Positions 28,114 to 63,230 of a DNA stretch of 64,000 nt are shown here, in pieces. How positions within the stretch are numbered: the first letter of the stretch is position 1; each line of letters starts with the position of its first letter. A program made the translations under genes and the position numbers. The notes under the pieces are model-generated. The model had not been told where the DNA came from, did not search any database, and saw only the letters and a list, made by a program, of their open reading frames with translations. The DNA comes from an uncultured Gemmatimonadaceae bacterium (GTDB lineage Bacteria; Gemmatimonadota; Gemmatimonadetes; Gemmatimonadales; Gemmatimonadaceae). Location: assembly GCA_963829055.1 (NCBI GenBank), contig CAWHHI010000020.1:576001-640000 (forward strand). Reading direction: 5' to 3'.

Positions 28114-28117
28114 GGAG

Positions 28118-29385: not shown

Positions 29386-29459
29386 CGGCCGCGGTCTGCG
29401 TCGCGGCGCGGAATCACGAACCCTGGAACACCCCGACGGGGTGATGGCGGGAGGCGCAC

Positions 29460-33105: not shown

Positions 33106-33279
33106 TTCGGGCGCAGTGTCTCGCGCCGCTTTCGACGCCCCGATTCGTACCGTTCGCCGCATTCGAATGGCCCGTCAGCCTCACAGCTATCATATTCGAC
33201 TTCCAGCGTTGCGAGAGGCCCAGCTGTGGTAGGGAGTGGCATCTCCACACGTCCGGCGAGCTCGCGGAAACTCGCTGCT

Positions 33280-35097
33280 ATGTCCGTGTCGCGCATCCCA
33301 AGTCGAGCGAGCGCCGTCGGTTTGGTGGTATTAGTTGCGTCGGCTGCTCTGAGTTGCGGCAAGGGGGTGACCGACGCCTCATCCGGTTCTCCGAACACGG
33401 TCGCTTCAGTCGCCGTCGCGCCGGAGTCGGTGTCGATCCCCATCTCCAGGACGGCACAGCTCGAGGCGACGCTGCATAACGCAGCGGGGGATGTCATTAG
33501 CGGTAGGGCGGTGAGCTGGTCGAGCTCTAATCTCGCGGTTGCAACGGTCTCGACGTCCGGTCTCGCAACAGCCGTCGCCGTCGGGAACGCAGTTATTACC
33601 GCGACCAGCAACGGGAAGTCAGGGCGCGCGGACGTAACCGTCGTGCCCACGCCCGTAAATCGCCTGCTCGTGACGCCATCAACGGCATCGGTTGCCTCCG
33701 GGTCGACGCAGACGTTCACCGCCACAGCGTATGACGCCGACGGCAGCATCGTTGCGACGCCGTCCGTATCGTGGACCTCATCGAACACGGGCGTCGCAAC
33801 GGTCAGCGCTTCTGGCGTTGCGAGTGGCGTTGCTGGCGGGCTCGCCACGATTTCAGCCAGGTCCAGTGACAAGACCGCGAGCGCGACGCTCGCGGTGGTC
33901 TCGGCCGCGTCGTGCAAGCTGGTCGACGGCGCCGGCGCTGTCCGGACCTCACCGCTCGCCAAGCCAGGTTACCTGCAATCGGTCATCGACCCGGATTTTG
34001 GCACGACCATCACGCGCATTTCGGGCGATCCCGGAGCGCCGATCCCCGTGGTCGGAGGGACGTGGGGTACGACGGTCTATGGCAATTACCCGAAGGATCC
34101 GGCGTGGAACGCCGACCAGTCGCTTCTGCTTCTGAAACACACGGGCACCTCGCAAGCAGGGTTTCTCTTCCTCGACGGCGAGACGTATCGGGTGCTATTG
34201 GCGCGGCGCGGTCCCAGTGGCGTCATCGATACGCGCTGGCACCCGACGATGCCCGACATCATGCTGTGGGTGTCCGCGGACGGAAGCGTCAGCCACTGGA
34301 ACGTCAGGACCAACACGTCCATCGCGAAGTTTCGAGCGTCGGGATATTCCGGCGCGAGCTTCGGAAGCTACGAGGGAAACCCATCGCGCGACGGCAGGTA
34401 CGTCGCTGTACAAGCCTCGCGTAACTCGGACGGTCATGTCGTTGCTTTCGTCGTCGACGTGGACGCGGGAACCAGGTCCGGGGACGTCGACCTGACGGCC
34501 GCGAACATTACGGATCTCGACTGGGTGTCGGTCTCGGAAGGTGGCGGCTATGTCGTGGCGTACGGGACGATCGACGGCCGGCAGCAACGCACGAAGGTGT
34601 GGCGACGCGACGGGACTGCGGTGGGCTACTGGCAGGACTTCACCTTCGGCCATTACGACCTCGGGCTCGACGCGGCCGGCAACGAGGTCGCCTTTGGCGC
34701 CGTGGGCCAGTCGCCTTACGCCCATCACTTCGTCGCCCGGCGTCTGGATTCGGGGGCGATCACCGACGTCTCCGGCGCCCTAACGAGTTTCAACTGGCAC
34801 GCGACGACGCGCAACACCGCGCGCTCGGGCTGGGGCTATGCCGCCACGAACGACCGCACCGGGTATCCACTGGACGGGGAGATCTATGCGGTCAAGCTCG
34901 ACGGGTCGTTCACGGTGGAACGCTACGCGCACCATCGCGCGAACAACATCGACTACGACTCGGCCCCGTTCCCGACCCCCTCACCCGACGGCCGACGCGT
35001 GCTGTTCGCGTCGAACTGGGGCGAGGCGAGCGGGAGGCCGGTGCAGGCCTACGTCGTGGACACGCGGCAACTCTGCCCGAACGGGCTTCCGCAGTAA
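33280..35097 (+). CDS. Lipoprotein with two Big_2 Ig-like domains and an uncharacterised beta-propeller-like C-terminal domain
   Basis: Lipobox ALSC; two W.SSN..VATVS repeats; C-terminus PSPDGRRVLFASNWG. Confidence 0.8.
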   Translation: MSVSRIPSRASAVGLVVLVASAALSCGKGVTDASSGSPNTVASVAVAPESVSIPISRTAQLEATLHNAAGDVISGRAVSWSSSNLAVATVSTSGLATAVAVGNAVITATSNGKSGRADVTVVPTPVNRLLVTPSTASVASGSTQTFTATAYDADGSIVATPSVSWTSSNTGVATVSASGVASGVAGGLATISARSSDKTASATLAVVSAASCKLVDGAGAVRTSPLAKPGYLQSVIDPDFGTTITRISGDPGAPIPVVGGTWGTTVYGNYPKDPAWNADQSLLLLKHTGTSQAGFLFLDGETYRVLLARRGPSGVIDTRWHPTMPDIMLWVSADGSVSHWNVRTNTSIAKFRASGYSGASFGSYEGNPSRDGRYVAVQASRNSDGHVVAFVVDVDAGTRSGDVDLTAANITDLDWVSVSEGGGYVVAYGTIDGRQQRTKVWRRDGTAVGYWQDFTFGHYDLGLDAAGNEVAFGAVGQSPYAHHFVARRLDSGAITDVSGALTSFNWHATTRNTARSGWGYAATNDRTGYPLDGEIYAVKLDGSFTVERYAHHRANNIDYDSAPFPTPSPDGRRVLFASNWGEASGRPVQAYVVDTRQLCPNGLPQ

Positions 35098-35115
35098 CGC
35101 GCGCCCGCGGCACGC

Positions 35116-35799
35116 CTAACGAAAGTCGTCGGCGAGGTTCGCGCTGTCGTAGGGCAGCAGCCTCGCCGGTGGCGCGACGTACACGCCGCCCTCCTGCGTA
35201 TCGCGCAGCACAGTGGCGCCCGCACCGATCACGGTACGGTCGGCGATCGTTAGGCCGTCGCGCACCGTGGAGTGGATGCCGACGAAGCAGTAGGAGCCGA
35301 TCTTCACGTAGCCGGCGATGGCGATCATGCCGACGAGGAAGCTGTGATCCCCGATCGTCGAATTGTGCCCGATGTGGACGCCGGACCCCATGTACACGTT
35401 GTTGCCGATCGTGACGAACGGGTGGATAACGCTGTGCTCCAGGATCCAGCAGTTGTCACCGATCGTCAGGTCCGGCCACGTGTGCGCGCGCGAGCTGACG
35501 TAGCTCACGAGGTCGTAACCCTTCGCCTTCGCCTCGGCGTACTTCTCGGCGCGCAGCTCGTTCACGCGCCGGAAGCTCACCGAGATGTGCATCGCGTGCG
35601 TGTCGGGCGGGTGAGAGCGCTCGATGTCCTCGAACGGGACCACCGGCAGTCCCAGCATCGTCCTTTCGGTGATGTAGGCGCCATCGACCGTGAACGCGAC
35701 GACCTCGTGCGGCGAGTCGTGCGTGAGCACCGTGTGCGCGAAGCAGGCCATTTGGCCGTTTCCGAAGAGCACTACCTTGCGGGGTTTCATGTTCTTCAT
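35116..35799 (-). CDS. NeuD/PglD-like hexapeptide-repeat sugar acetyltransferase
   Basis: VVLFGNG, hexapeptide repeats TIGDNCWI/TIGNNVYM/HIGHNSTIGDH. Confidence 0.85.
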   Translation of the reverse strand: MKNMKPRKVVLFGNGQMACFAHTVLTHDSPHEVVAFTVDGAYITERTMLGLPVVPFEDIERSHPPDTHAMHISVSFRRVNELRAEKYAEAKAKGYDLVSYVSSRAHTWPDLTIGDNCWILEHSVIHPFVTIGNNVYMGSGVHIGHNSTIGDHSFLVGMIAIAGYVKIGSYCFVGIHSTVRDGLTIADRTVIGAGATVLRDTQEGGVYVAPPARLLPYDSANLADDFR

Positions 35800-36973
35800 G
35801 GTTCCTGACCGGCCATCGCGCGAGGCGCGCGGGCCGAGCGCCGCGGTCCGGCGAATGACGGCGACGACGCGCTCGAGGTCGGCCTCCGTGAGGTTGGATC
35901 CCGACGGGAGACAGAGCCCGCGGGCGAAGAGGTCGTCGGCGACTCCTCGGCCGACAATCGGCGACCGTGCGTAAAGCGGCTGCAGGTGCATTGGCTTCCA
36001 CACCGGCCGAGCCTCGATGCCCTCTGCGTCGAGCGCGCGACGAACGTCTTCGCGGTCGGCAGCCAAACTCCTCGCGGATCGATCGTCAGGGTCGTGAGCC
36101 ACCGGGTGTGCGTGCCCCACGGCGCCTCGGGCATGAACTCGATGCCCGGCAGGTCGCCTAGCGCCTCGCGGTAGAACGCGAAGTTCCGTCGGCGCGCCGC
36201 GACGCGCTCCTCGAGCACGCTGGAGCTGGCCGCGCCCGATCGCGGCGAGGACGTTGCTCAGCCGGTAGTTGTAGCCGATCTCCGAGTGCTCGTAGTGCGG
36301 CGCCGGGTCGCGCGCCTGCGTGGCCAGCTTGCGCGCGTGCGCGACGCAGCGCCTCGTCGGCGGACACGAGCATGCCGCCGCCGGCGGTGGTGATGATCTT
36401 GTTGCCGTTGAAGGAGAACACGCCGCATCGCGCCCGACGGTTCCCGGCGCGCGGCCCTTGTACGACGCGCCTAGCGCCTCGGCCGCGTCCTCGATCAGCG
36501 GGACACCGTACCGGGCGCACGCGGCGCTGATCGGATCGAGGTCGGCGCTCTGGCCGTACAGGTGCACGAGCACGACCGCCTTCGGGAGTCGGCCCCGGCG
36601 CGCGCGCGCGTCGAGCGCCTCCTCGAGCAGCGCCGGGTCCATGTTCCACGACGACGCGCTCGCTGTCGATGAAGACGGGCGTCGCGCCGAGATAGACGAT
36701 CGGGTTCACGCTGGCCACGAAGGTGAGCGTCGAGACGAGCACCTCGTCTCCGGGCCCGACGCCGGCGAGCATCAACGCGAGGTGCAGCGCCGCCGTGCCC
36801 GAGCTCACGGCGACCGCGTACCGCGCGCCGACCGCGGCGGCGAACTCCTCCTCGAACGCGTCGACGTGCGGACCGAGCGGCGTCACCCAGTTCGTGGCGA
36901 ACGCGTCGGCGACGAATTGCTCCTCGAGGCCCGAGAGGTGCGGCGAGGAAAGGAAGACTCGCTTGGAGGTCAT
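35796..36973 (-). CDS. DegT/DnrJ/EryC1/StrS sugar aminotransferase (PglE/EpsN-like), frameshifted
   Basis: LSSPH, SSGTAALHL, VHLYG, EDAAEALG, SFNGNKIIT, GYNYRLSN, RPVWKPMH. Confidence 0.9.
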
Positions 36974-36996
36974 TCGCTCTTGTCTGGGTGCCGAGC

Positions 36997-38007
36997 TCAC
37001 GCCACCATCGCGAACTCGTCGAACTTCGCCACACGCACGCCCAAGCGCGCTTCGAGTGCGCGGGGATCCGACACGTTGCCCAGCCGCCACGCCACGAGCG
37101 CCATCATGAGGTTTGCGCCAGCCATCTGAGAGAACGGAAGGCCACCCCCAATTCGTGGATTCAGGTCGATGATGACTGGGGGGGCGCCCGTGGCCATGAA
37201 CACGTCGCAGTCGAGCGAGCCAATGTGCCCGAGCGCGGTGCCAAGGGTCCTGCCAAGTGCCGCGAGCTCGTCGTTCATGACGGTCACCGCACGGTCAGTG
37301 CTACCAGCTCGCATGCGCAGCTTCTGGCGCGCCAGCGTGGTGACGTGACGTCCAGCAAGGTCGTTGATCACGTCGACGCCGTATTCATCGCCGACGAGCC
37401 GCTCCTGGATGAGCACGGATTCCTCGGGCGTCACTGCGCCAGCCCTGATCATTGACCGGGGTGCACGCAGCGTCGCGAGCTCGTGGATGAGCTCCAGCTC
37501 TCGCGCGCTGGCCGCCATCTCCACGCCGATCGACGTCGAGCCAAAACGCGGCTTCACAACGATCGGGTACGAGAGATCGTGCTGGAGAATGGCGCGCTGG
37601 GCCTCGGCGAGCGACAGCCACGTCCGGGGACTTCGAAGTCCGCAGCGCGCGAGAAATCGATTCGCCTCCCACTTGTCCTCGCACAGCGCGATGACGCGGG
37701 TGTCGGACACGACCGGGAACGCGTCGACAGCGAGAAATCGTTCGCGGTGTTCAGCGATTACGCCGAGCTCGCGTTCATTGAGCGGGATGACGAGACGTAT
37801 GGCGTTCGACGCACAGATGTCCAGGAGCGTGTCGACGTACGACTCTTCGGTGCATGGTGGAACCGCGAACGCGCCGTCGGCCTCGCTGAGCGCGGGTGCG
37901 TCGGCGGACGCTTCGGCAGCGAACAAGTGACCGTCCGGCGGCAGCGCGCGGCGCATGTCACGAAGGACGCGATTGGACCGGCCGACCGATGTGACCAGCA
38001 CGTTCAT
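36997..38007 (-). CDS. ATP-grasp domain protein (carbamoyl-phosphate-synthase-like)
   Basis: MNVLVTSVGR, CEDKW, VVKPRFGSTSIG, IQERL.G.EY.VD, DLNPRIGGG. Confidence 0.85.
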   Translation of the reverse strand: MNVLVTSVGRSNRVLRDMRRALPPDGHLFAAEASADAPALSEADGAFAVPPCTEESYVDTLLDICASNAIRLVIPLNERELGVIAEHRERFLAVDAFPVVSDTRVIALCEDKWEANRFLARCGLRSPRTWLSLAEAQRAILQHDLSYPIVVKPRFGSTSIGVEMAASARELELIHELATLRAPRSMIRAGAVTPEESVLIQERLVGDEYGVDVINDLAGRHVTTLARQKLRMRAGSTDRAVTVMNDELAALGRTLGTALGHIGSLDCDVFMATGAPPVIIDLNPRIGGGLPFSQMAGANLMMALVAWRLGNVSDPRALEARLGVRVAKFDEFAMVA

Positions 38008-38017
38008 TGCCCCCTCC

Positions 38018-39089
38018 TCACACGCCGACGGCGGCGTTAGGCGGTCGACGATACGCCGGGAAGAACCCCGGCGACGCATTGTCTGTCCGCAGCGACTCGT
38101 CACGCACGTTCGCCAGCTGATTGTACCGTTCGTCGTCGAACACAACGCGTACTGTATGGAACTCCGCTTCCAGCGGCGAGAAACCCGCTCTTGAAGCGGT
38201 GGAGTGACCCGCCACCTCCGCCGAGTCCTCCTCCGAGATTCAGCAACGTGGCGCCGAGATCCTTCGCCCACTGTCGGACGAAGTCGAACATCAGCTTCGA
38301 CGGCGCCTTTGGGAAGTGAACCTCGGCGGTGCCGCCCAGGTGGTATTCGGCAAGTCCATCGACCAGCAGGAACAGCCCGCTCGCGGCGACGTCTCCGTCC
38401 GGCCCGCGCACCGTGCACAGGTGAAGGCGGTCTCCGAGCATTGCCCGGAGCTCATCGAAGTACCGCTCGGAGAAGAAATAGAACGCACTCGCCGAATTGC
38501 GTTCCATCGTGGCGCGGTAAACTACCTGGAAGTCCGAATACGCGGTCCAGTTATCCATTTCGACCGTGTATCCCATGCGGATGAGCCGCGCGATATTGCG
38601 CCGGTGATCGAGGCGAGTCTCGGCCTGCCACTGCTCATAGCTCCTGGCCAAGTCCACGTACACGACACTCCCATGATGGACCACGGCCCCAGCCGCTCCA
38701 TAGAGTGCGGCCGGCATCGAATAGAACGGATGCAGCCGGATGAACGCGCTCACCAAGCCACGCTCGCGGCCAACATCCCGGAGTGCCTGTAGCGAGGTGT
38801 GGAGCAGGTCGGGCCGAGCGCCGCTGGTCGTGATCGGGCCAGAGTAGCCATACGGGCTGGTCGCGTCTCGCCAATCCGGTGGCGCGTTGAGGTCGGAGGG
38901 AAGCTCGCGCACCAGCAGTGGCATGAGCAGGGCATGCTCGCCCTCTTCGACGTAGAAGGCGACGGGTTCTCCGCACTCGTAGTTGCCGGCAACACGGCAA
39001 TACGCGGGAAGGTGGTAGGCGTCGTGAGGAGCACGGTCGAGGAAACGCTGCCACCGCGCGTCGTTCAGCGAAAGGAAGTCGGCGATCAT
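38018..39089 (-). CDS. GNAT/FemAB-like N-acyltransferase (frameshift near 38180)
   Basis: DAYHLPAY, SPYGYSGP, FIRLHP, YRATM.R, YHLGGT, LNLGGG, FKSGF, FFPAYR. Confidence 0.82.
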
Positions 39090-39245
39090 GCTGATGAATC
39101 AGGCCCCCGCGGCAGGCTTAGGCAACCTTAGAGCGGTCTCCGGCTCGAATTGGTGTTGCACATGCGCAGCAGACTGTGGGGTCATACAACAATCTGCGCA
39201 GCGCTAATTGAGGCCACGCGAAAACCCGGAGCGGAGGTCTAATTG

Positions 39246-39351
39246 GCAAGTCAATGGTACGCAAGAAGATAAGCGTCTACGAAAAACCACGTTTCGCCGG
39301 GCCGTCGAGCGCCGGATGTGCTATGGACAATTCCCGTACGCCCATTACAAT
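39246..39351 (+). promoter_or_regulatory. Putative promoter of the wza-wzc operon
   Basis: GCAAGT-N16-GATAA, GAAAAA..ACGT, TGGACA(39324)-N16-TACAAT(39346); same layout as 25121-25217. Confidence 0.55.
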
Positions 39352-39663
39352 GGGCTAGGCTGCTACGATTAGACTTCATCAATCTAACGTTAGGCAGCGT
39401 CGAGGTGGAGAGCCGCCCGTTGCGTCGAGGTCGCCTGACACCACGTCACGCCTCGAGACAGCGAACAGAAGCGTATTGTGTCGGCGGGCGGGGGGTCACG
39501 TGGAAATGAATTGTTTGTGCAGGCTCTCACCGAGCATTCTCGGTGTGGCTCGAGCCGATGTTCGCGTAACGACGCCGGGATGGCGTCGTGCTCGGACCAG
39601 GCACGTCGCTACGCCGCACGAGCTGCCGGCCTCACCGTTGCGCCTAACGCCATCACAGCAGCG

Positions 39664-40287
39664 ATGAAGGTCCTACTAATCATGTTCTCCCTGCTCCTTT
39701 GCGGAGCATCGCCGGCCGCGCTCGCCCAGTCTTCGGGTCCGGTGGCCAGCGGCGCGCTCAATCCTGGCGATGTCGTCCGGATCACGGTGTGGCGCAAGCC
39801 CGAGCTCAGCGGGGATTTCGTGGTCGCGGGTGACGGCTCCGTCTCCCACCCGCTCTATCGCGAGGTTCGGGTGACCGGAATCCCGCTCGCGGCCGTCGAG
39901 GCGCGGCTCCGGGAGTTTCTCGGGAAACTCGAGACGAATCCGCAGTTCGTCGTCGAGCCGTTGCTCCGAGTTGCGGTTGCCGGGGAAGTACGACAACCAA
40001 ACCTGTACACGTTGCGGCCGGAGACGTCACTGGGGCAGGCGGTGGCCATGGCAGGCGGCGCGACCGATCGCGGTCGGCCAGACCGCGTCCTGCTCGTGCG
40101 CGACAACAAGCAGGTGGTCGTAACGCTACGTGCCGCCGACCAGAGCGGGGCTGCCATGCCCATACGCTCCGGCGATCAGATCGTGGTCGAGCGGACGAGT
40201 GCGGTCTTTCGAGATTACATTGCACCGATCGTCAGCATCCTCGGCGCCACGGCGGCGATCGTGAGCGTGGTTATCTACAACCGATAA
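39664..40287 (+). CDS. Polysaccharide export protein (Wza-like, Poly_export + SLBB)
   Basis: LNPGDVVRITVW..PELSG, VAVAGEVRQP, AVAMAGG, IRSGDQI. Confidence 0.85.
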   Translation: MKVLLIMFSLLLCGASPAALAQSSGPVASGALNPGDVVRITVWRKPELSGDFVVAGDGSVSHPLYREVRVTGIPLAAVEARLREFLGKLETNPQFVVEPLLRVAVAGEVRQPNLYTLRPETSLGQAVAMAGGATDRGRPDRVLLVRDNKQVVVTLRAADQSGAAMPIRSGDQIVVERTSAVFRDYIAPIVSILGATAAIVSVVIYNR

Positions 40288-40294
40288 GGCGAGC

Positions 40295-42745
40295 ATGTCA
40301 ATCGTTCAGAAGGACCGCAACCACTCTCGCCGCGCAGCTACGATCCGGCGACAGTCTGACTGAACGTGAGCCCATCGTCGCGATGACATTCCCGCGAGGG
40401 GATCACGCTTTCGGATATCTTCAGCATCATTGCGCCGGCACGTGGTGCTGGTCCTCGCCGCGACCATAGCGATCGGCTCACTCGCCGCGCTTTCGGTCTT
40501 TCGGGAAACCCCGACCTACCGCGCGACCGCCACGCTTCGGCTCACCGACACGCGAAGCTCGATGACCGGGGCACTCGGCCACGGGGCCAGCGGACCCACG
40601 GCAGGGCACCAACCCCATGCTGTCGCAGGTCCAGCTCCTCAAGAGCAAGGCGCTGATCGGTGCGGTGGTGGATTCGGTGGGACTGCGGCTCCATCCGGTA
40701 GAGCGCGGATTCTCGGCCTCCGTGCTGAGCCAGGTCCGTGTCGATCCGGGGGTAGTGCAGGACACGTTCTTCCTCGCCTTCTCCAACGACGGATACACGG
40801 TCAGGAACGGGTCCCGTGACACCCGCGTCGCCTACAACGCGCCGTACCAGGCGGTCGGTGTGAGCTTCGCCGTCACGGCGAAGCCCCCGGTGGATCGCGG
40901 CACGCTCGTGCTGTCGCCGCGCGAGCAGACGATCGACGACTTCATCCTCAATCTCCGCGTAACGCCGCGCGATGAGACGAACGTCGTGGACGTCTCCTTT
41001 TCGGACGCGGTTCCGCAGGTGGCGCAGCGCGTCGTCAACACGCTCGTGAGCGAGTTTCAGGACGTCGACATCCGGCAAGCGCAGGGTGAGTCTCGGCGCC
41101 GCCGCATCTTTCTCGCTGAGCAACTCCGTGAGATCGACGGGCAACTGTCCAAGTCGGAAGGAGCGCTCGCTTCGTTCCGCAGCCGCGAGCAGGTGTTCAG
41201 CTCTCGCGAGAAGTTCCAGGCGCAGCAGACGGCGCTGATGACGCTCGACATTCGCCGCGAGGAGCTCGACGCGGATCGTCGCGTGTACGAGTCGCTAGTG
41301 CAGAAGCTGCAGCAGGCATCCGGCGACCAAAAAGATGATGAGCTGCGAACGCTCATCGCCGCGCCTGATGTCAGCACGAACCCCGTGGTCTCTCAGCTGT
41401 ACCAGCAACTCGCCCGGTATCAGACCTCGCGTGACTCGCTCACCACCGGCGAATGGCGGAGCGCCCCGGGCAATCCGGACGTGGCGCGCCTCGATCAGCT
41501 GATCTCGTCGACCGAGCAGCGACTCCTCGGCGCCGTCCGTGGACAGATCGCGACGATCGACGTGCGACGCGACGCACTGGGGACACTCCGGACGCGGAAC
41601 GCGGCCGCGATCGAGGCACTGCCGCGCGCCGAGTCGGCCGAAGAGCGACTCGTTAGGCAGGTGGAATCCAACCGCCTCCTGGCTGACCGCCTGAAGGACG
41701 AGTACCAGAAGGCGCGGCTGGCCGAGGCCGTGGAGGCGGGGCAGGTCGAAGTCCTGGACCTTGCGTCGTTGCCGTATCGGCCCGTCGCCCGGCTACGGAC
41801 GCTGCGGCTGCTACTTGGCGTCCTGGTCGGACTGACGCTCGGCGTACTCGGCGCATTGCTCATCGACAGCACGAACGCCCGCGTCCGGCGCCGCGTCGAC
41901 ATCGAGGAGGAGATGCGCGTCCCGGTGCTGGCTGTCATCCCGCGAATCGTGCCCGAGGCGGACGGCCATTCGCTGCGTCGGCTATCGGCGAGACTGGTCT
42001 CCAAGCGCGGGAACGCTCGTGCTGCACGACGGAACGGCCAGAGTGTACGCCCACAGAGCGCGGCTGCCTTCATGACGCCGGCGGGTAGCGAGGCATTTCG
42101 CCTGCTGCGTTCGAGCCTGAAATGGGCCCAGCGGGATGGCTCCGGCAAGACGCTCGTCATCTCGAGCGCCCTCTCCGAGGAGGGGAAGACGACCACGTCG
42201 GCGAACCTCGCCGTGGTGTACGCGCTCGAGGGAAAGCGAGTGCTGCTGATCGACTGCGATCTCCGCCGGCCACGACTGCACCAGGTTTTCCGCGTGCCGC
42301 GTAGCCCCGGGGTCGCGCAGGTTCTCCGAGAAGACATTGGTCCGGCGGCAGCGGTGCGGGACACGTTCTTCCACGGGCTCTCCTTTCTCCCGGCGGGTCG
42401 GGACACCGGTGGCGATCACCGACTACATCGGCTCCGATCGCATGCGAGCGCTGCTGGCGGCACTGTCGGATCACTTCGACATGATCATCATCGATACGCC
42501 GCCGGTTCTCGCAGTTGCCGACGCGGTCGCACTCGGCGCCGCTCGTTGATGGCGTTCTGTTGGTGGTCGGCGCTGGCACCACTGACCGCCATGCGGTGGA
42601 ACAGGCGCTCGGTCAGCTGGGGAGCACAGGCGCGCGGGTCGTGGGTGCGGTGCTCAACGATTCGCGCGGTGAGGTGGAGCGGTATGGTGGCAGCGACTAC
42701 TAACGTGTACCAGGACAACTACGCCGATATCGACGAGCGCCTAGC
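40295..42745 (+). CDS. Wzc-like polysaccharide co-polymerase / tyrosine autokinase (frameshifted)
   Basis: Two TMs, coiled coil, EAFRLLRS, Walker A EEGKTTTS, LLIDCDLRRP, IIIDTPP, Tyr-rich tail. Confidence 0.88.
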
Positions 42746-42777
42746 AGTTCGGCCCGATCGTCCTGAGCGCTCATCCA

Positions 42778-44200
42778 GTGGGCACCGCACTCGATCGTCT
42801 CTATTCGCCGGGTCGTCGGCCTGGCGGCACGGCACGACCAACCGGCGGATCTTCGCCGCGATGGTCGTGGTTGGCGCCGCCACGCTGTTGGCCAAGGTCG
42901 CTCGCGATGGCGAAGGACGTGGCGGTTGCCTCCTACTTCGGGACCTCCGACGCGGTCGACGCGTACTTCATCGCTTTGACGGTGCCGACGTTCGCGATCA
43001 ACGTGCTCGCCGGCTCGATTCCGGCCGCGCTGATCCCGGCGTACCTGCGCGTCCGGGAACGCGACGGTGTCGCCGGGGCCGGTCGCTTGTTAGGCAACGT
43101 GCTGATGCTCGCAGGCACGGCGATCGGCGTCTCGTGCCTCGTGCTTGCGCTTGCTCGCGCCCGTCCTCATGCCGATCGTGGGGGCACGGTTCAGCAGCTG
43201 AGAAGCTGGCGCTCACCCAGCACCTGTTCCTCCTCGTGCTTCCGGGGGTGCTCGTCTCCGGGATCTCAGGAATGTTCGCAGCCGTCCTCAACTCGCACGA
43301 ACGGTTTCTGCTTGCCGCGGCCACACCGGCGTTCATGTCGATCTTCAGTATCGCGTTTCTGGTCGCGGCGGCGGACCGTTGGGGGATCTACGCACTCGCG
43401 ATCGGCCTGACAGCCGGCTATGTCGCCGAGCTCGCCGTACTGACGTGGAGCCTGCGATCGAGGAACCTGCTGACGGTCCCGCGCCGAGCCAGCTGGCGTG
43501 ACCCCGACGTACAGCTCGTCCTCGGACAGTACGCGCCGCTCGTCATCGGCGGCGCGGTGATGAGCAGCTCGCCGCTGATCGACCAGGCAATGGCCGCGTC
43601 GCTCGGACCAGGCAGCGTCGCGCAGCTCGTCCTACGCGAGCAGGCTCGTCACCGCGGGGCTGGGCATCGGCGTGACGGCGCTGTCGACCGCGATCTTCCC
43701 GCACTTCTCGCGGATGGTGGCGGCCGGCGATTGGTCCGGGTTGCGTCATACGCTTCGCACGTATTCCCGTCTGGGCCTCGTGGCAGGGGCCCGTGTCGTC
43801 TTAGCTGATCGTCGCGTTCTCGGAACCACTCGTTAGGTTGGTCTTCGAGCGCGGCCAGTTCGTGGCGAGCGATACTCGAGCCGTGGCACACGTCCAGGCG
43901 CTCTACGCGCTCCAGATTCCGTTCTACGTGCTCGGCATCGTGGGTGTGCAACTCCTGCACGCGATCAGCGCGAACCGGGTGCTCATGTGGGTGAGCATCG
44001 GGAATTTCTTCACCAACATTATCGGGAACTACATCTTCATGCGGCTGTGGGGCGTGGCGGGAATCGCGGCGGCCACTTCCATGGTGTACGCCATTTCGAT
44101 GGTCGTGATCCTCACCGCTGTCGGAAAGCGCTTGCGCAGCCTCGAACGCGAGAGCTCGCCGCCGCGAACCACGCACCCTGACTCACGGGTGCCAGCATGA
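42778..44200 (+). CDS. MurJ/MviN-like lipid-linked oligosaccharide flippase (frameshifted)
   Basis: KDVAVASYFGTSDAVDAY, DQAMAASLGPGSV, STAIFP, LVFERGQF. Confidence 0.85.
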
Positions 44201-48913: not shown

Positions 48914-48972
48914 CGCGCACCCTGCTCCTGTCTCGCTCACACAGGCGAGATCACCCGGTCCCCGGTAGCGCT

Positions 48973-50869: not shown

Positions 50870-50890
50870 CCCAGCAATCGGTCGCGCCCC

Positions 50891-52070: not shown

Positions 52071-52071
52071 C

Positions 52072-54084: not shown

Positions 54085-55404
54085 CAACGAGGCGTTGCCT
54101 GCGTCGGTTCTGTCGGGACCAACCGGCGAGCGCCGCGGACGATCGCATTCGACTCGTTCACATTACTACCGTACCCGAATCGCTGAATTTCCTCGCCGGG
54201 CAGGTGGGGTACATGACGGCGCGCGGCTTGAGCGTCACTGCGGTCTCGTCGCCGGGCAGCGAGCTCGGTGCCTTCGGGGCTCGCGAGGCCGTGCCGACAT
54301 ACGCCGTCGCAATGGCGCGGCGCATCACGCCGCTGCGCGATCTGATCTCCATATGGCAGATCTACCGCGTGCTGCGGCGCATCCGCCCGCACATTGTCCA
54401 CGCCCAGACCCCGAAGGGCGGTCTTCTGGGCACAATCGCCGCGTGGCTCGCCGGCGTACGCGTCCGCGTCTATCACATCCGCGGGCTGCCTCTCATGACC
54501 GCAACGGGTGCGCGCCGACGCCTGTTGTGGACCACGGAGCGAATCGCCTGCGGACTGTCTCACGCGGTACTCTGTGTCAGCCATTCGGTGCGTGACGTCG
54601 CTATCGCCGAGCGGCTGTGCGCGCCGGGCAAGATCACGGTCCTGCTCGGAGGTAGCGGTAACGGAGTCGATGCGGAGGGGCGCTTCGATCCGCGCCATGA
54701 GCCCGACCGCCGCGACACGCACGCGGGAACGCCTCGGCATCCCGCCTAACGCGGACGTGATCGGATACGTCGGGCGCATCGTCCGGGACAAAGGCGTGGT
54801 CGAGCTCGTGCGCGCGTGGTCGGCGCTGCGCAATGCCTATCCGAACGCGCGGCTGCTGATCGTCGGGCCGTTTGAACCGCAGGATCCGATTCCGCGCGAC
54901 GTCGAGGACATCCTTCGTGGCGACCCGCGCGTTCACCTGACAGGGCAGGTGCATGAGACAGCGCCACTGTACGCAGCCATGGACCTCGTCGTCCTGCCGA
55001 CGTACCGCGAGGGGTTTCCCAACGTGCCGCTCGAAGCGGCATCGATGGGACTCCCGGTAGTCGCGACGCGTGTCCCAGGCTGCACGGACGCGGTGGAGGA
55101 CGGGGTGACCGGAACACTCGTCGCCCCGCGGGACTCGGGGGCGCTCGCCGATGCCGTCGGGGCATACTTGCGAGACAGCGACCGCCGAAGCGCGCATGGG
55201 AGCGCCGGACGCCGGCGCGTGCTGCTCGAGTTCCGTCGCGAGTTGATATGGGACGCGCTGTACGCCCATTACATCACGCTGCTGAAACGACACGGCCGCA
55301 CTGGGCCCCGGATGCCACGAGTCCCGGTTGGCGAGGTGCCACCGGGACTCGGGAATCGGGCTGCAACACCCGAGGAAACACCAGAGGACGCGACGTATCG
55401 TTAG
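54062..55404 (+). CDS. Glycosyltransferase family 4 (frameshifted; start approximate)
   Basis: HITTVP.SL, TPKGGLLG, GSGNGVD, GRIVRDKG, PTYREGFPNVPLEAA. Confidence 0.88.
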
Positions 55405-55464
55405 GCGCGAGCGGTATCGCTCAGGCGCTCGGGTCGGCCCAGGCGCCTGGGTAGGTCTCCGGGG

Positions 55465-56667
55465 TCAGGGGCAGATGGGGCGGATGTCGACGACGTAGGT
55501 CTGGACGGGGCGGCTGGTGGAGCTGCCCCAGTTGGAGGCGAAGACGACGCGCTTGCCGTCGGGCGAGGCGGTCGGGAAGGGGGCCGAGTCGTAGTCGGTG
55601 TTGTTGGCCCGGTGGTGGGCGTAGCGCTCGACGCGCCCCCCGCCGTCGAGGTTGACCGCGTAGATCTCCCCGTCGAAGGCGTAGCCGGTGCGGTCGTTCG
55701 TCGCCGCGTAGCCCCAGCCCGGGCGGGCGGTGCTGCGGGTGCCGGCGTGCCAGTTGTAGCTCGTCACCGCCCCGGTGAGGTCCGTGATCGCCCCGCTGTC
55801 GAGCCGGCGGGCGATGAAGTGGTGCGCGTAGGGCGACTGGCCCACGGCGCCGAAGGCGACCTCGTTGCCGGCCGCGTCGAGCCCCAGGTCGTAGTGGCCG
55901 AAGGTGTAGTCCTGCCAGTAGCCGACCGGCGCCCCGGTCGCGCGCGACCAGACCCGGGTGCGCTGCCTGGCGCCGTCGATGACGCCGTAGGCGACCACGT
56001 AGCCGCCGCCCGCCGACACCGACACCCAGTCGAGGTCCGTCACGCCCGGCCGCCGTCAGGTCGATGACCGCGCCCGGCGCTGCCGCCGTCGACGTCGAGC
56101 ACGCGCGCCACCAGGTGGCCGTCGGAGGCGCGCACCGCCTTGGCCACCAGGTAGCGCCCGTCGTTCGACAGGTTCCCCTCGCTCGGCCCCATCTCGTTGG
56201 AGCGCGTAGCCGGCGACGGCCGGCACCCTGCACCGTGCCCGTGTTCGTGCGCACGTTCCAGTGCCGCACCGCCCCGTCGGGGGCCAGCGACACCGCCACG
56301 TCGGCCAGGCGCGGGTGCAGCCGCCACTCCCCGCCCCCCGGCGGGCCGCCGCGCGAGAACAGCGGCTGGTAGGTGGCGCCGTCGAGGAACAGGGTGAACC
56401 CGGTCCCCTTCATCTGCTTCAGCACCAGCAGCCGCTGGTCGGCCGTCCACACCGGGTCCTTCGAGTAGTTGTGGTAGGCCACCGTCGGCCACGTCCCCGA
56501 CACCCCGCCGCCGATCGGCGTGCCCGGGTCGCCGGTGATGCGCGTGATCGTGGTGCCGAAGTCCGGCTCGAGCACCGACTGCAGGTAGCCCGGCTTCGCC
56601 AGCGCCGTCGTCGCCCGCGCCCCCGTCGACGTCACCACGCTGCACGACCCCCCGCTCGGCGGCGTCG
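55465..56667. repeat. 1.2 kb direct repeat, copy A
   Basis: Near-identical to 61058-62256 (about a dozen substitutions and a few single-base indels by eye). Confidence 0.95.
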
Positions 56668-59078
56668 GCGCCACCGTCAGCACGGCCATACCGGTCTTTC
56701 CCTCACTCGTCGCGATGACGTTCGCGGTGCCAGCGGCCACCGTCGTAACCAGTCCGGTGGCGGAGACCTGGGCGACCGACGAAGCCGACGACGACCAAGT
56801 CACCGACCGCCCCGTCAGCACGTTCCCCGCCGCGTCCGTGAGCGACGCCGACGCCTGCGTGGTCTGACCCACGATGAGCGACGTCGACGACAGCGACACG
56901 GAGACGGTAGCCACCGGTATCGGCGAAACGGTGAGCGAGAGTGATCCGCTCTTTCCCTCGCTCGTCGCGGTCACCGTCACCGAGCCACTCGCGACGCCTT
57001 TCACCAGGCCGCTCGGCGAAACCGTCGCCACTGCTGTATTCGACGACGTCCAGCCCACGGTGCGTCCGGTGAGCTCGCGGCCGATCGCGTCCTTGATTGT
57101 CACGGTCACCGATAACGTCGACCCAACGACCAGCGACGTCGAGCTCGCCGATAGCGTTACGGTCGCCACCGGCGCGGGGGCCGGCGCGTCGATGGTCACC
57201 GTCGCGGCGCCGGTTTGATTCTCGCTCGTCGCTACGATCGATGCCGAACCCGCGCTCACGGCCGTCACCACTCCGGTAGGCGAAACCGTCGCCACGCCGG
57301 TGTTGGCGCTTGACCAGGTCACCGTGCGACCGGTCAACGGATTGCCCGCTGCATCCCGAAGGACCGCGGTTGCCTGTGTCGTCGCCCCGATCGCCACTGA
57401 CGCCGACGCCAGCGTCACCGACACTGACGCGACCGGCGCTGGCGGCGGCTCCGCGACGGTGACCGCTGTCGTGGAGCTGATGTCGTCAGCGACGGCGGAG
57501 ATCGTGGCGCTTCCGCCGCCCATCGCCTTCACCAATCCCGCCGGTCCGACGGTCGCCACCGCCGTGTTGGAGCTCGACCAATTCACTGCGCGATCGGCGA
57601 GCGGCACGCCCGATGCGTCGCGCACGGTAGCCGAAAGCGTCGCGGTATCACCTGTTGTGAGCGAGAGGCTGGCCGGAGACACGACGACGGACGCGGCAGG
57701 AATCACCGTGACCGACACGGGGGCCGACGAGGCCAGCCCACTGGACGACGCCTGAACGGATGTGCTGCCGATCGCGGCGGCGCTGACAGCGCCGGATGCC
57801 GTGACGGGCGCGACTGCGCTGTTCGCGCTCGCCCATTTGATCGTTTGGTTCGGGATGGCGACTCCCTTCGCGTCGCGCACCTCCGCCTGCAGCTGCGTAT
57901 TCTGGCCGACCGTGAGCGAGACGCTCGACGGGAGGATGGCGATCGATGCCGGCACGGGTGCGCTGATGGTCAGCGACGCGTTGCCGATTTTCGCTTCGCA
58001 GATGGCGCTGATGGTCACGGACCCGTTCGCGACAGCGGTCACGAGGCCCTTGGAGTCCACCGCGGCGAGCGCGGGATTGGAGCTCTGCCAGGCGATGGTG
58101 CGCCCCGTCAGGACGTTGCCCTGCGCGTCCTTCACGGTGGCGGTGGCTTGCGTGGTCTGTCCGACCGACAGCGTCCCGCTGCCTAACGACACGCCGACCG
58201 TGGCCGCCGGCACGCCAAGCACGTTCACGGACGCCGTGGCTTTCTTGCTCTTCGACTGCGCCGTGATGATCGCGAGTCCCTTCGCGACACCCGTGACGAG
58301 GCCAGCGTCCGAGACGGTGGCAATCGATGGATTCGAGGACGACCACTTTGGAACGACACCGCTCACGATGCGTCCGTTGTCATCGAGCGCGGAGGCGGTG
58401 AGCTGCAGGCTTTCGCCAGGAAGGATCGAGGCGTTCAGCGGTGCCACCGTGAGGGACGACGTCGATCCACGAAGGACGTCGACCGAGGCCGACGCCGTGA
58501 CGCCGCTCAGCTGCGCACTGATCGTCACCGATCCCTCTTCGAGACCGGTCATCACGCCATCAGCGCTGATGGTCGCCACCGTCGGATCGGAGCTCACCCA
58601 CTGAACGCTCGCCCCACTTGCCGCAACCGTCCCCGCCGCGGTGGTCGTCGACGCGACGAGACGGAGCGAATCGCCGAGCATAACGAGTGCGGCTCCAGGC
58701 AACACCGCGAGCGACGGCGGCGACTGAATGATGACGGTCGCGGTGTCTGGCGCGGCGCCCGCCTGAACGATGATGTGAGCGACACCAGGCGTTAGGCCCG
58801 CGACCAGCCCCGCGGCCGAAACAGTCGCGACGGACGGGTTGTCGGATCGCCATTCGACCGCGTGATCACGGGTGACGTTCCGATCGTCGAAGACGCGAGC
58901 GGTCAGCTGGGAGCTGGCCCCGGTCGTTATGGTATCTGCTTTTGGTGAGACCGAGACGCGAAAGGCTGATGGTGGGCGTGCTACTGCTGCCCGGGCTCAT
59001 GGAGTCGGGGCTGCAGCCCTCGACCATGACGCTCATGACGAGTAAGGACGCCGTGACCGTGCGGATAAGCGGTCGCAT
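55465..59078 (-). CDS. Lipoprotein with about nine Big_2 Ig-like repeats and the shared beta-propeller-like C-terminal domain (frameshifted)
   Basis: Lipobox VEGC; nine W.S....VA.V..G repeats; C-terminus ASPDGKRVVFASNWG...DIRPICP. Confidence 0.8.
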
Positions 59079-59096
59079 GGACCCCTCCGTGAGGGT

Positions 59097-59196
59097 ACGT
59101 TCGGCGGCTCGGCCGGCGTGGCACGCGACCCGACGCGTGCGGTAGCCCCGTTGGCTTTGCGTCCCCGGCTTTCGCCGGGTTTGCCCTTGTCGCGTC
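59097..59196 (-). ncRNA. c-di-GMP-I (GEMM-I) riboswitch
   Basis: GCGACAAGGGCAAACCCGGC-GAAA-GCCGGGGACGCAAAGCC..GGGGCTA...GCCGAGCCGCCG, directly upstream of the 59078 ATG. Confidence 0.9.
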
Positions 59197-59436
59197 ACCC
59201 TCAGGGGGTGGTGCGATCTTGCCAATCAGTTTTCGATGACGTCCGGATGACGACCCGCGCTTTGGGCGCGTCACCCGCACGGCGGCACGGTCCTTCACGC
59301 GACCCCCATTTTGTCGCGTGATCACATCGTTAGGCGGTCCGGCGGCGCAGAGTTACTGTGATGCAGCGCTCATTCAACGACAGCGCGTCGGGACAGTGCA
59401 ACCATCATGGCGAAATGCGAGTGCCGCGCGATCACG

Positions 59437-60813
59437 TTAGGCACCGTGCGATGGCTGTTCGTCACGATGCCGGCCTCTCCACCACGTGACGAGCCCCATC
59501 GCGGCCAGCACGCACACGAACGGCATCGCCGGATGACGGAAACGGCCGACACCCACGGGCCCGCCGGCTATGGTGATGAAGTAGGCGATGCTCAGCACCG
59601 AGAGCAGCACCGCCGGGTCGAGTGTACGATGTTCGGCAAGCCACCCCCGTACTGCCAGGGCGTACATGAAGACGAGAAACATCCCGAGCACGCCGAGCAA
59701 CACGAAGGCGAGCAGGTTCGTGTGCAGGATGCGCCGGATCCCGGCTGCGAGCCCATCGGTCACGACCACGCTCAGCACACCGCTGTTCCCCTCGTACAGC
59801 CCGTACGACTGCAGCAGCGAGAGTGCGCCCGGGTCGAGCATCACGCGCGTCATGCCGGCGACGTGAATTCGCGCGTAGAGCGGAAGGTTCGCCTTGACGA
59901 TCCGGCCGCCTTCAGCGCCCATGTAGGTGAAGCGGCGCCCTCGCGACCACGTTGCCTGCTCCGGGTGACGCCGCAGGTAGACGCGGCCGTCGTGGTAGCC
60001 CCACGCCGTTTGCACGTCAGCGTAGGATCTCCCTTCTCTCCTCGCCTCGACGGCCGCGGCGTTGTAGAAGTACATGTTGACGGCCGAGATCGCGGAAAAT
60101 CCGCCAAAGTCGAGCGCTCGATTCCGGATGTGCCACGGCGCAACGATCGACAGAGCCACCACCGTCGCGAGCACGAAGTGGCTCAGCCGACGCCAATCAC
60201 GAGCGGCGATCGCCGCCGCGGCGAGGAACGCCAACAGTCCAAACGAGAGGTAGTACCCGGCCGGACGGACGTACGCCGCAACCGAAAGGAGCGCAGTCCC
60301 GGCCAGGAGCGCGGAGCGCTTCGGCGCGCGAACATACGCGACCAACAGGGCGACGGCCCAGACGACGAGGAGTGTGAAGAGCGTCTCCGTGCCTAACGCG
60401 GATGTCGCTCTGACCGAGATCGGTTCGAACGCGTAGAGCGCAGCCGCAATGAGCCCTGCGCGCGCGTCGCCCGTTACCCTGCGCGCAACGACGAACACAC
60501 CCAGCGTCGTGAGCACCGACAGCGCCACCTGGATCACGATCGTGACCGGAACCACATGTCCCGACCAGAGCCCGACGACCAGAAGGAGCGGATAGCCGGG
60601 CGTGCGCTCGAGCTCGGGGATTCCACGCACCGCGAAGGTTCCGCGGGCCAGCAGCTCACGCGCCGGTGCCAGGTACGACTCGCTGTCCTGCTCGATGAAC
60701 ACGCTCGGATCGCGCGTTACCAGCCACGCTCCGAGCGCGTACGCCATGCGAACCGCCGCGGCAATGACGAGCAGCCAGATCAGCAGTTCCCGCTCCCGCG
60801 GTTGCGCTCGCAT
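59437..60813 (-). CDS. ArnT/PMT-like (GT-C) membrane glycosyltransferase
   Basis: QDSESYL, RTPGYPL, TETLF, YVRP, PWHIRN, RFRHPAMP; multi-TM. Confidence 0.78.
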   Translation of the reverse strand: MRAQPRERELLIWLLVIAAAVRMAYALGAWLVTRDPSVFIEQDSESYLAPARELLARGTFAVRGIPELERTPGYPLLLVVGLWSGHVVPVTIVIQVALSVLTTLGVFVVARRVTGDARAGLIAAALYAFEPISVRATSALGTETLFTLLVVWAVALLVAYVRAPKRSALLAGTALLSVAAYVRPAGYYLSFGLLAFLAAAAIAARDWRRLSHFVLATVVALSIVAPWHIRNRALDFGGFSAISAVNMYFYNAAAVEARREGRSYADVQTAWGYHDGRVYLRRHPEQATWSRGRRFTYMGAEGGRIVKANLPLYARIHVAGMTRVMLDPGALSLLQSYGLYEGNSGVLSVVVTDGLAAGIRRILHTNLLAFVLLGVLGMFLVFMYALAVRGWLAEHRTLDPAVLLSVLSIAYFITIAGGPVGVGRFRHPAMPFVCVLAAMGLVTWWRGRHRDEQPSHGA

Positions 60814-60962
60814 TAAATGAATGGCGGTCCGTCCAACGCTCAATGAGCGGTACAAGCAAGGCAGCGCTGACGAACGATGCAAGGCGTCGATCCCGTGGCC
60901 GGTGTCGCGACGCAGTGAATGGCGTCGGTGAGCTGCGGCGTTAGCGGCGCGCGTGTCAACGC

Positions 60963-60998
60963 CAAGTGGGGGGCACCTGACTAGGTGCCCCCCACTTG
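60963..60998. terminator. Perfect 16-bp inverted repeat (terminator or REP-like)
   Basis: CAAGTGGGGGGCACCT-GACT-AGGTGCCCCCCACTTG, 60 bp after the 61058 stop. Confidence 0.7.
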
Positions 60999-61057
60999 TT
61001 ACGTCGACCTCACCCTGCCTCCCTCACCCTGCATCGGGCGCGGGAGCGGGCCCCGCG

Positions 61058-62256
61058 TCAGGGGCAGATGGGGCGGATGTCGACGACGTAGGTCTGGACG
61101 GGGCGGCTGGTGGAGCTGCCCCAGTTGGAGGCGAAGACGACGCGCTTGCCGTCGGGCGAGGCGGTCGGGAAGGGGGCCGAGTCGTAGTCGGTGTTGTTGG
61201 CCCGGTGGTGGGCGTAGCGCTCGACGCGCCCCCCGCCGGCGAGGTTCACCGCGTAGATCTCCCCGTCGAAGGCGTAGCCGGTGCGGTCGTTCGTCGCCGC
61301 GTAGCCCCAGCCCGGGCGGGCGGTGCTGCGGGTGCCGGCGTGCCAGTTGTAGCTCGTCACCGCCCCGGTGAGGTCCGTGATCGCCCCGCCGTCGAGCCGG
61401 CGGGCGATGAAGTGGTGCGCGTAGGGCGACTGGCCCACGGCGCCGAAGGCGACCTCGTTGCCGGCCGCGTCGAGCCCCAGGTCGTAGTGGCCGAAGGTGT
61501 AGTCCTGCCAGTAGCCGACCGGCGCCCCGGTGGCCCGCGACCAGAGCCGGGTGCGCTGCCGGGCGCCGTCGATGACGCCGTAGGCGACCACGTAGCCGCC
61601 GCCCGCCGACACCGACACCCAGTCGAGGTCCGTCACCCCGGCCGCCGTCAGGTCGATGACCGGCCCGGCGCTGCCGCCGTCGACGTCGAGCACGCGCGCC
61701 ACCAGGTGGCCGTCGGAGGCGCGCACCGCCTTGGCCACCAGGTAGCGCCCGTCGGCCGACAGGTTCCCCTCGCTCGGCCCCATCTCGTTGGAGCCGTAGC
61801 CGGCGACGGCCGGCACCCGCACCGTGCCCGTGTTCGTGCGCACGTTCCAGTGCCGCACCGCCCCGTCGGGGGCCAGCGACACGGCCACGTCGGCCAGGCG
61901 CGGGTGCAGCCGCCACTCCCCGCCCCCCGGCGGGCCGCCGCGCGAGAACAGCGGCTGGTAGGTGGCGCCGTCGAGGAACAGGGTGAACCCGGTCCCCTTC
62001 ATCTGCTTCAGCACCAGCAGCCGCTGGTCGGCCGTCCACACCGGGTCCTTCGAGTAGTTGTGGTAGGCCACCGTCGGCCACGTCCCCGACACCCCGCCGC
62101 CGATCGGCGTGCCCGGGTCGCCGGTGATGCGCGTGATCGTGGTGCCGAAGTCCGGCTCGAGCACCGACTGCAGGTAGCCCGGCTTCGCCAGCGCCGTCGT
62201 CGCCCGCGCCCCCGTCGACGTCACCACGCTGCACGACCCCCCGCTCGGCGGCGTCG
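61058..62256. repeat. 1.2 kb direct repeat, copy B
   Basis: Near-identical to 55465-56667; begins exactly at the stop codon. Confidence 0.95.
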
Positions 62257-63107
62257 CCACCGTGCTGCTCCCGCTCACCGTCGAGCACCGCCGTGCCGGA
62301 TACGCCACCGGCCGTGGCCGTGATCGTCGCCGTGCCCGCACCGAGCGCCGTAGCGAGACCGGCGGCGGTCACACTGGCCACCGAAGGAGCAGAGCTAGTC
62401 CACGACACGGTCTGTCCGGTCAACGCGTTGCCGTTTGCATCTTCGAGGGTCGCGGTAGCCTGCGCCGTCTGAGCAATCGTGATCGACGCAGCGCTCAACG
62501 CGACAGAAACGCTCGCGACGGCGACGGGCCCCGGAGCGGGAGCGCTCGAAATGACGCTCTCGCCCCACTTCTGGCTGTTGTCGCCGTTTCGGCAGTTATC
62601 AATGTAGAGCGTTGTTCCATCGACGGGATGGCCGTTAAAGGAAATGCAGAGGCCGTTGATTCCCTTGATCCGTCCGCCGCTCGTCAGCGTCCACTGCTGG
62701 TTGGCCCGTCCGTGGCAACCCCAGATCACGATTCGGTCGCCGACGTTACCCTCAGCGGTGTAAGCATCGAGGCAGTAGCCCGACCCGATCTTGATGAGGC
62801 GGTCGGGCGTCAACTCGAATTTCTGGGAAGTTGTACCGGCGCACGGCTGAAGCTCGACCCGAGCTCCGTCGTACATCGACCCATTGCGAATCGTCATGCA
62901 CTTCGAATCCTGCCAGCTAGAGTTGATGGTGGCGACGACTGATCCGTTCGATACATCAACGACGGCGAGAGAGGGGTTGACGACGTTGTCCGGGCTGACC
63001 ATGCCGGGAGAGTCGGGAGAACAGGCCGCGAGCTGGAGGGCGAATACGAAAACCGAGAACGCCACAGCGCGGCTAGCCGACTTGGGTCGGCTGGCAAGGA
63101 ATTGCAT
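61058..63107 (-). CDS. Lipoprotein with a ricin-B lectin, one Big_2 domain and the shared beta-propeller-like domain (frameshift near 62285)
   Basis: Lipobox LAAC; QxW/QxF ricin repeats (SQKF, NQQW, SQKW); WTSSAPSVASV; C-domain as in 55465. Confidence 0.82.
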
Positions 63108-63125
63108 CTTACAGCTTCCTCCGGG

Positions 63126-63230
63126 TACAACGGCGGCTCGACTGGCGTGACCCGCGCACACCCTGCGCGCGAACGGTAGCCTCGTAGCTTTGCGTCGCCG
63201 GCTTTAGCCGGTTTTGCCTTTGTCGCGTGC
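63126..63230 (-). ncRNA. c-di-GMP-I (GEMM-I) riboswitch
   Basis: GCGACAAAGGCAAAACCGGC-TAAA-GCCGGCGACGCAAAGCTACGAGGCTA...GTCGAGCCGCCG, upstream of the 63107 ATG. Confidence 0.85.

Follow-up and report, generated by a model that had tools for sequence, protein, structure and literature searches.

We analysed a stretch of 64,000 nucleotides (the window) from an uncultured Gemmatimonadaceae bacterium (contig CAWHHI010000020.1 of assembly GCA_963829055.1; G000:C20:576001-640000, with G000 as our label for the source genome), in which three genes encode predicted lipoproteins with a common C-terminal domain, here called the head. A tblastn search found exactly three copies of the head in the 7.78-Mb genome (20 contigs, 86% complete, 67% GC), all within the window: copy 1 at 33901-35094 on the plus strand, copy 2 at 56656-55486 on the minus strand, split into three frame pieces, and copy 3 at 62245-61061 on the minus strand. 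As the initial annotation had proposed, the heads sit on different stalks. Copy 1 (33280..35097, plus strand) encodes a 605-residue protein with Cys26, two Big_2 domains and a propeller head of 398 residues (33901..35094, plus strand; predicted local distance difference test score 96.7). Copy 2 (55465..59078, minus strand) carries nine Big_2 domains, counted from nine W-x-S motifs spaced by about 85 residues (Pfam gave eight in the longest frame), and copy 3 (61058..63107, minus strand) combines a ricin-B lectin domain with one Big_2 domain. The limits first given to this family, 33280 and 63107, are the ATGs of copy 1 and copy 3. Lipoboxes were read by eye as LAAC in copy 3 and as the non-canonical ALSC and VEGC; a Cys likewise follows a hydrophobic stretch in many full-length relatives. 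Three proteins thus bear the domain, but with only two head sequences, as the heads of copies 2 and 3 are nearly the same; that of copy 3 is 66% identical to that of copy 1. The WHP motif ascribed to all three reads LHP in copies 2 and 3.

Single-base insertions are frequent in this assembly (20 per 7.4 kb relative to the metagenome contig L083), and in the window six single extra bases disrupt the frames of copies 2 and 3, five in copy 2 (58967, 56229, 56204, 56071 and 56044) and one in copy 3 (62283). As all six are missing from contigs L090-L092, which are 98-99% identical to the window, copies 2 and 3 are intact genes in nature. Of the public DNA runs, four of four omit the extra bases at 58967-9 and three of four the one at 62283; on both grounds, pseudogene status was rejected. 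Copy 1 is intact in L083. DNA near-identical to the window is present in rhizosphere, soil and sediment sequencing runs. In metatranscriptomes, pieces of copy 3 occur in four runs and a piece of the copy 2 stalk in one, which does not prove expression as there is no DNA control. On many contigs, the genome also contains two abundant dispersed repeat families of ~350 and ~580 bp with 85-93% identity between copies.

Copies 2 and 3 are each preceded by a cyclic di-GMP (c-di-GMP)-I riboswitch and copy 1 has none, in agreement with the claim that two of the three genes are controlled in this way. The matches (59100..59195 and 63129..63228, both on the minus strand; Rfam RF01051, 57.5 bits each) lie 22 nt upstream of the respective ATG and exceed the Rfam gathering score (>35 bits) across the full model, with nothing unusual compared to the known class. 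GGAGG sits between riboswitch and ATG in both (59078-59100 and 63107-63129), and in copy 2 a short CCCTC/GAGGG hairpin, read by eye, could mask the Shine-Dalgarno sequence. The riboswitch also lies upstream of the relatives' genes in L089, L090, L092 and L096. The genome contains seven c-di-GMP-I riboswitches, including the two in the window. A second pair (G000:C4:627933-636841; L127 and L128) precedes Big_2 lipoprotein-like genes whose common head is 78% identical, weakly beta-helix (a weak Pfam match) and of unsaturated GC3 (the share of codons that end in G or C); their polysaccharide locus includes a deacetylase, an asparagine synthase, a heparinase II/III-like gene and GT4 glycosyltransferases. 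As read from these predictions, the design of riboswitch, stalk and glycan-type head, twice per locus, recurs on C4 with another fold. The remaining three lie ahead of a gene for a secreted protein with no known family (C12:306068), one for a protein that by eye looks STAS-like (C12:536602) and a small open reading frame (ORF) of lipoprotein-like type (C11:416364).

Over 1,199 bp that reach from the linker as far as the stop codon, the heads of copies 2 and 3 differ at ten positions, all substitutions; the flanks are unrelated. The homogenised tracts (55464..56667 in copy 2 and 61057..62256 in copy 3, both on the minus strand) have a PMT_2-type membrane glycosyltransferase gene between them (59437..60882, minus strand). 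Alleles are exchanged between the copies: copy 2 of contig L091 holds alleles of the window's copy 3, and copy 3 of L090 holds one copy 2 allele. Ricin-type and long-stalk heads are 97-99% identical in three lineages (the window; P0045 with L096; P0026 with P0024/P0025) and are sisters at 81-92% in four further lineages. Between lineages, the heads are 52-73% identical and like stalks 45-69%. Paralogous heads are thus closer within than between lineages, which is the pattern of concerted evolution. Copy 1 largely escapes, except that its codons ~243-280 are 94% identical to copy 3 compared to 81% to its own orthologue; L087 and L094 are mosaics, and both observations may reflect real tracts or chimeric contigs. 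Three points weigh against this reading: the monophyly of ricin-type heads is presumptive, coming from a quick tree (110 rows, seven duplicates dropped), both partners were demonstrated in one genome for the window only, and the other ricin-type and long-stalk partners are separate records, several of them fragments. Judged from these comparisons, gene conversion between the heads of copies 2 and 3 is nonetheless very probable. That the two riboswitch-preceded heads evolve in concert, and that they are GC-saturated, had been overlooked in the initial annotation. Contigs L096 (177-3503) and L097 (1-4675) have the same stalk and head with differing 3' ends, and in L089 (2288-8830) a ricin-type gene is fused to the downstream genes of copy 2; such junctions would be expected of crossover between the repeats, or of mis-assembly.

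The converting tract is saturated in GC3. All 395 codons of the copy 3 head end in G or C, the longest such run in the genome; the next-longest run outside the locus has 174 codons and lies in a generally high-GC3 stretch. In copy 2, GC3 of the head is 1.00 both in the 139 and 186 codons of the two frame pieces that were counted and in the intact head of L091. By comparison, GC3 is 0.75 and 0.82 in the stalks, 0.83 in the copy 1 head and 0.73-0.81 in neighbouring genes, and the 2,939 long ORFs of the genome have a mean of 0.824 and a maximum of 0.968. The last codon ending in A or T precedes the shared tract by nine codons in copy 2 and by 16 in copy 3 (L092). Among relatives, the heads of L088/L089 and L096/L097 reach 0.99 on stalks of 0.78-0.83; copy-1-type heads have 0.79-0.85 and diverged duplicates (G618, G687, L037, L042, L062 and L067) an ordinary GC3. 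TTG and AGG do not occur in the heads and GGG and CGG, two codons rarely used in eight housekeeping genes, are common, a pattern that speaks against translational selection. The GC excess thus stays within the converting tract and takes no account of codon optimality, as GC-biased gene conversion (gBGC) predicts. The excess of the amino acids G, A, R and P over F, Y, M, I, N and K is larger in ricin-type heads (n = 16) than in those of copy-1 type (n = 13; p 0.002), a weak difference uncorrected for host GC and drawn from non-independent kin. In the window species the head shows a gradient from G to C, which is not clear in L089 or L096.

We ran a strict self-search of G000 for near-identical coding pairs, excluding contig overlaps, rRNA and mobile repeats; young duplicates are indistinguishable from converting pairs in this search. 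Six pairs were found, among them the heads (GC3 1.00), a 282-bp tract of non-ribosomal peptide synthetase (NRPS) genes on C8 (0.99) and a 293-bp tract on C16 (0.97); in these three, the run of G/C-ending codons tracks the identical tract. The C8 tract (16250-16531 and 24531-24812), identical in its two copies, belongs to two NRPS adenylation domains with flanks of 70% identity. The C16 tract (214521-214813 and 677369-677661) belongs to small secreted Gln/Met-rich proteins 460 kb apart, with 98% identical mature parts and differing signal peptides. The two EF-Tu genes (GC3 0.84-0.87) are only 84% identical and thus provide no test. A process like that of diversity-generating retroelements, changing A to N, was rejected on reasoning, since neither A nor T remains at third positions. 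Nor is missing mismatch repair the cause, as MutS and MutL motifs are present; motifs of MutY, Vsr, Ung and NucS were not found in the genome, and such short motifs cannot settle absence.

Taken together, identity, GC saturation and tract limits are most simply explained by repeated conversion with repair that favours G and C, and we consider a GC bias in the conversion probable from these patterns. Weighing against it, the other three near-identical pairs are unsaturated (GC3 0.90, 0.88 and 0.83), and the head of L003 reaches only 0.95 (this Mycobacterium-titled record, with a ricin-type gene of this system and a downstream Big_2 gene, is probably a mis-binned contig). The unsaturated pairs would also suit an account, which we regard as unlikely, in which conversion is real and saturation stems from selection for G/C-ending codons or biased repair mutation, more efficient in recombining DNA; the accessible part of a study of 146 species likewise attributes the link between recombination and GC to selection rather than gBGC (PMC11879095). 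Such selection is difficult to reconcile with a GC3 of only 0.82-0.89 in housekeeping genes and 0.70-0.83 in the stalks of the same mRNAs, with the enrichment of housekeeping-rare GGG and CGG in the heads, or with a GAC to GCC change (Asp to Ala) in copy 3 at a position where 118 of 142 homologues have Asp. Recent import from a donor of extreme GC3 followed by duplication, or identity as an assembly artefact, is largely disfavoured. A possible trace of import is the region C6:593000-615500, with a GC3 of 0.9-0.98 and many long G/C-ending runs of up to 174 codons (PAS/GAF kinases and transporters), which by its composition is likely foreign DNA or contamination. However, heads that share only 54% (L096) and 87% (L089) identity with that of the window are saturated as well, so that separate imports would be needed, and the pairing of the two stalk genes is old. 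The assembly is error-rich, and chimerism is conceivable for contigs L089, L096/L097, L087 and L094; against an artefact, independent contigs reproduce the identity and the window copies differ at ten sites.

Paralogues that are closer within than between lineages and a rise of GC with recombination are known, as far as the accessible parts of PMC4450053, PMC11879095 and PMC13061034 go, and the same is seen here. PMC4450053 argues in that part that gBGC acts in bacteria and calls for an experimental test, and PMC13061034 describes paralogue conversion in M. tuberculosis, with no claim of GC bias in the part consulted. The bacterial evidence in these excerpts is a genome-wide correlation, whereas here a single domain of two genes has 100% GC3, a sharp edge and controls in the same genes. 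Our literature search, with most subscription journals outside its coverage, found no report of GC3-saturated tracts in bacterial paralogues and no paper on this head family. The 100% GC3 conversion tract is the stronger surprise compared to a lyase-like family.

As for the head itself, the predicted fold is a seven-bladed propeller whose nearest structures are PL22 oligogalacturonate lyases (3PE7 and 3C5M), at 13-15% identity. Pfam, NCBIfam and Atlas have no family name for it (PD40 is weak in 37 of 60 members), so that the earlier description as an unnamed propeller family holds. Atlas gives PL22 clusters at 0.87-0.89 only, and a single PL22-like protein against the head profile yields P 4%, a 10-sequence profile being needed. 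In three of four hhalign runs, H251 aligns with PL22 His242, which we take to be the catalytic residue. H251 is present in 141 of 142 homologues; among the 11 closest sequences H251, D253, H300, R304, R341 and Y352 are kept in all, and R230, the candidate counterpart of PL22 Arg217, in ten (23 of 119 distant members). In copy 1, R230 lies at 34588, H251 at 34651, H300 at 34798, Y352 at 34954, A355 at 34963 and F357 at 34969 (plus strand); pocket geometry was inferred from strand order. The resemblance to PL22 proposed earlier is thus supported by fold and profile, but weakened in that the histidines of the PL22 C-terminal motif, on which that proposal leaned, are Ala and Phe here. TolB does not fit: the N-terminal alpha/beta domain and tol-pal operon are replaced by Ig/lectin stalks and a polysaccharide locus, and its profile TIGR02800 matches 4 of 60 members at E>=0.029. 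PL24, PL25, PL42 and GH145 are not among the best 50 structural matches, and no BNR-type Pfam match was found.

All three copies lie, as annotated, in a Wzx/Wzy-type polysaccharide locus of ~39 kb (25370..64000, from a domain scan and synteny in L083-L092) with genes for Wza, Wzc, a flippase, a priming transferase, GT2 and GT4 glycosyltransferases, DegT, ATP-grasp, GNAT, a deacetylase and three asparagine-synthase-like amidotransferases. Of 17 head-bearing metagenome loci, L083-L086, L088-L092, L094 and L097 share flanking genes with the window. The family is larger: a word-indexed search returned 293 relatives, and representatives number 4,761 at E<=1e-3, 2,912 at E<=1e-10 and 1,136 at E<=1e-30, in Bacteroidota, Planctomycetes-Verrucomicrobia-Chlamydiae, Bacillota, Myxococcota, Acidobacteriota and others. 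Among kin it is scarce: it was found in none of six genomes of the same genus (77-92% complete), in 1 of 400 from the family and in 3 of 400 sampled from the phylum. Of 49 long homologues chosen among the best matches, 12 carry CBM9, CBM4_9, F5/8, PA14, LamG or ricin-B modules, two a beta-helix or pectate-lyase domain, eight a type IX secretion tail and 16 no domain at E<=1e-6. In 76 genome loci (315 of 326 ORFs, up to three per side; a raw tally with some close kin), glycoside hydrolases, lyases, esterases, sulfatases or beta-helix proteins adjoin the head in 18, polysaccharide-synthesis genes in seven (two of these a single GT4) and only sugar-catabolic genes in four. Fusions and neighbours thus uphold the glycan link of the homologues, while the tie to synthesis loci is weakened in the wider family, and that the head is directed at glycans appears highly probable. 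Degrading neighbours include GH88 (L037 and L052) and GH28/GH20 (L046). In a conserved Bacteroidota cluster (L037:8403-11110, L042, L052 and L029), a beta-helix protein and GH88 accompany one or two diverged heads and the cluster continues with unannotated and NHL genes; it is the best place to find the family's substrate. In the Verrucomicrobia loci L020 and L024, the head gene lies between a GH89 alpha-N-acetylglucosaminidase and several sulfatases, which suggests a sulfated amino-sugar glycan. The single plasmid match (Chelatococcus) lies within an annotated XrtA-type polysaccharide cluster.

Going by predicted fold and setting, the head represents a genuine new family related to PL22, in a context whose modularity and regulation are unusual. 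We propose a role in trimming the polymer that the cell itself makes, through beta-elimination with a histidine base. A signal peptide and Cys would anchor the proteins in a membrane, Big_2 stalk length would set head height, and the ricin-B domain would give copy 3 an extra grip on sugar. H251 would remove the C5 proton, with Arg230, His300, Arg304 and Tyr352 holding the sugar. The metal site would have been lost in this clade, perhaps as the amidotransferases of the locus amidate the uronate carboxyl and make metal needless. c-di-GMP would set the translation of copies 2 and 3, and their direct repeats, 5.6 kb apart, would swap sequence without crossing over, with mismatch repair of the heteroduplex favouring G/C. 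Lyases and hydrolases inside exopolysaccharide loci, such as AlgL, PslG, PelA and BcsZ, are thought to clear, size or release polymer. The head resembles them as a putative degrading enzyme in a synthesis cluster, and differs in its fold, three modular copies, riboswitches directly upstream and concerted evolution. It also differs from PL22, a cytoplasmic single-domain enzyme of pectin catabolism, in its synthesis locus, signal peptide and stalks, its lack of a PF14583 match and the loss of three of the presumed metal ligands. Metal-free chemistry of this kind has a precedent in the seven-bladed propellers PL24, PL25, PL42 and GH145, which, in the accessible part of PMC8377490, use a metal-independent His base and an Arg neutraliser.

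Several observations weigh against this proposal. None of 60 members matches PF14583 at E<=0.1; PDB searches by sequence (the head) and by profile (two of them) returned weak WD40 matches only, with PL22 not among them; and the H251-His242 stretch is misregistered in the tool's own hhalign run. Of the PL22 Mn ligands, presumably His287, Gln350, His353 and His355, the first is kept as H300 and the others are Y352, A355 and F357 in the window (Y/E/H in the wider family; 4 of 10 PL22-type proteins are likewise Y-x-x-E-x-N), and the family residues R60, K269 and E355 are replaced in this clade, all of which would fit a dead enzyme as well. We saw no uronate-forming dehydrogenase in the window, 47 of the 76 homologue loci have no informative glycan neighbour (with no background rate for comparison), and the wider family adjoins degrading more often than synthesis genes. 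The same replacements in the 11 closest sequences would suit a non-catalytic lectin derived from a lyase that binds the exported polymer and holds capsule or matrix on the cell, the stalks setting the height, as would long Ig stalks, typical of adhesins, and c-di-GMP, which commonly promotes attachment. We hold this to be possible but rather unlikely, since the putative active-site residues are conserved as described, copy 3 already carries a separate lectin domain and the second riboswitch/Big_2 pair bears a beta-helix-type head (weak Pfam match). More doubtful still is a glycan-acting enzyme that uses the PL22 scaffold for a different reaction, as a glycoside hydrolase, esterase or amidase. 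Identity to PL22 of a mere 15% and the sulfatases, GH89 and esterases that flank distant homologues would allow it, and, according to the accessible part of PMC8377490, propellers of seven blades with a histidine include a lyase (PL42) as well as a hydrolase (GH145); yet the histidine aligned to His242 is the best-kept residue, and GH88 neighbours point to unsaturated products. Lyase chemistry of the head is likely to about an even degree, and the combined explanation of PL22-like, self-polymer-trimming heads with GC-biased conversion of the two riboswitch-preceded copies is the best overall, with roughly balanced chances of being right as a whole.

A bolder reading, which we hold at somewhat less than even confidence, is that paralogue conversion in this soil lineage is so GC-biased that tracts reach 100% GC3 with edges sharp to the codon, a locus-level footprint of gBGC, and that what is converted is the catalytic part of a novel family of metal-free surface lyases under c-di-GMP control, held identical on two differing stalks. 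If true, the stalk, the single-copy paralogue and unrelated gene pairs would act as built-in controls for bacterial gBGC, which is disputed largely because recombination between strains also aids selection. A tract confined to part of a gene whose mRNA also carries an unsaturated stalk would separate gBGC from selection better, and long runs of G/C-ending codons would offer a cheap screen for converting paralogues in GC-rich genomes. The head would define a large family near PL22 that lacks annotation and has candidates among loci for glycan degradation as well as for matrix synthesis; it would also raise a testable idea, namely that the metal site is lost in step with sugar amidation.

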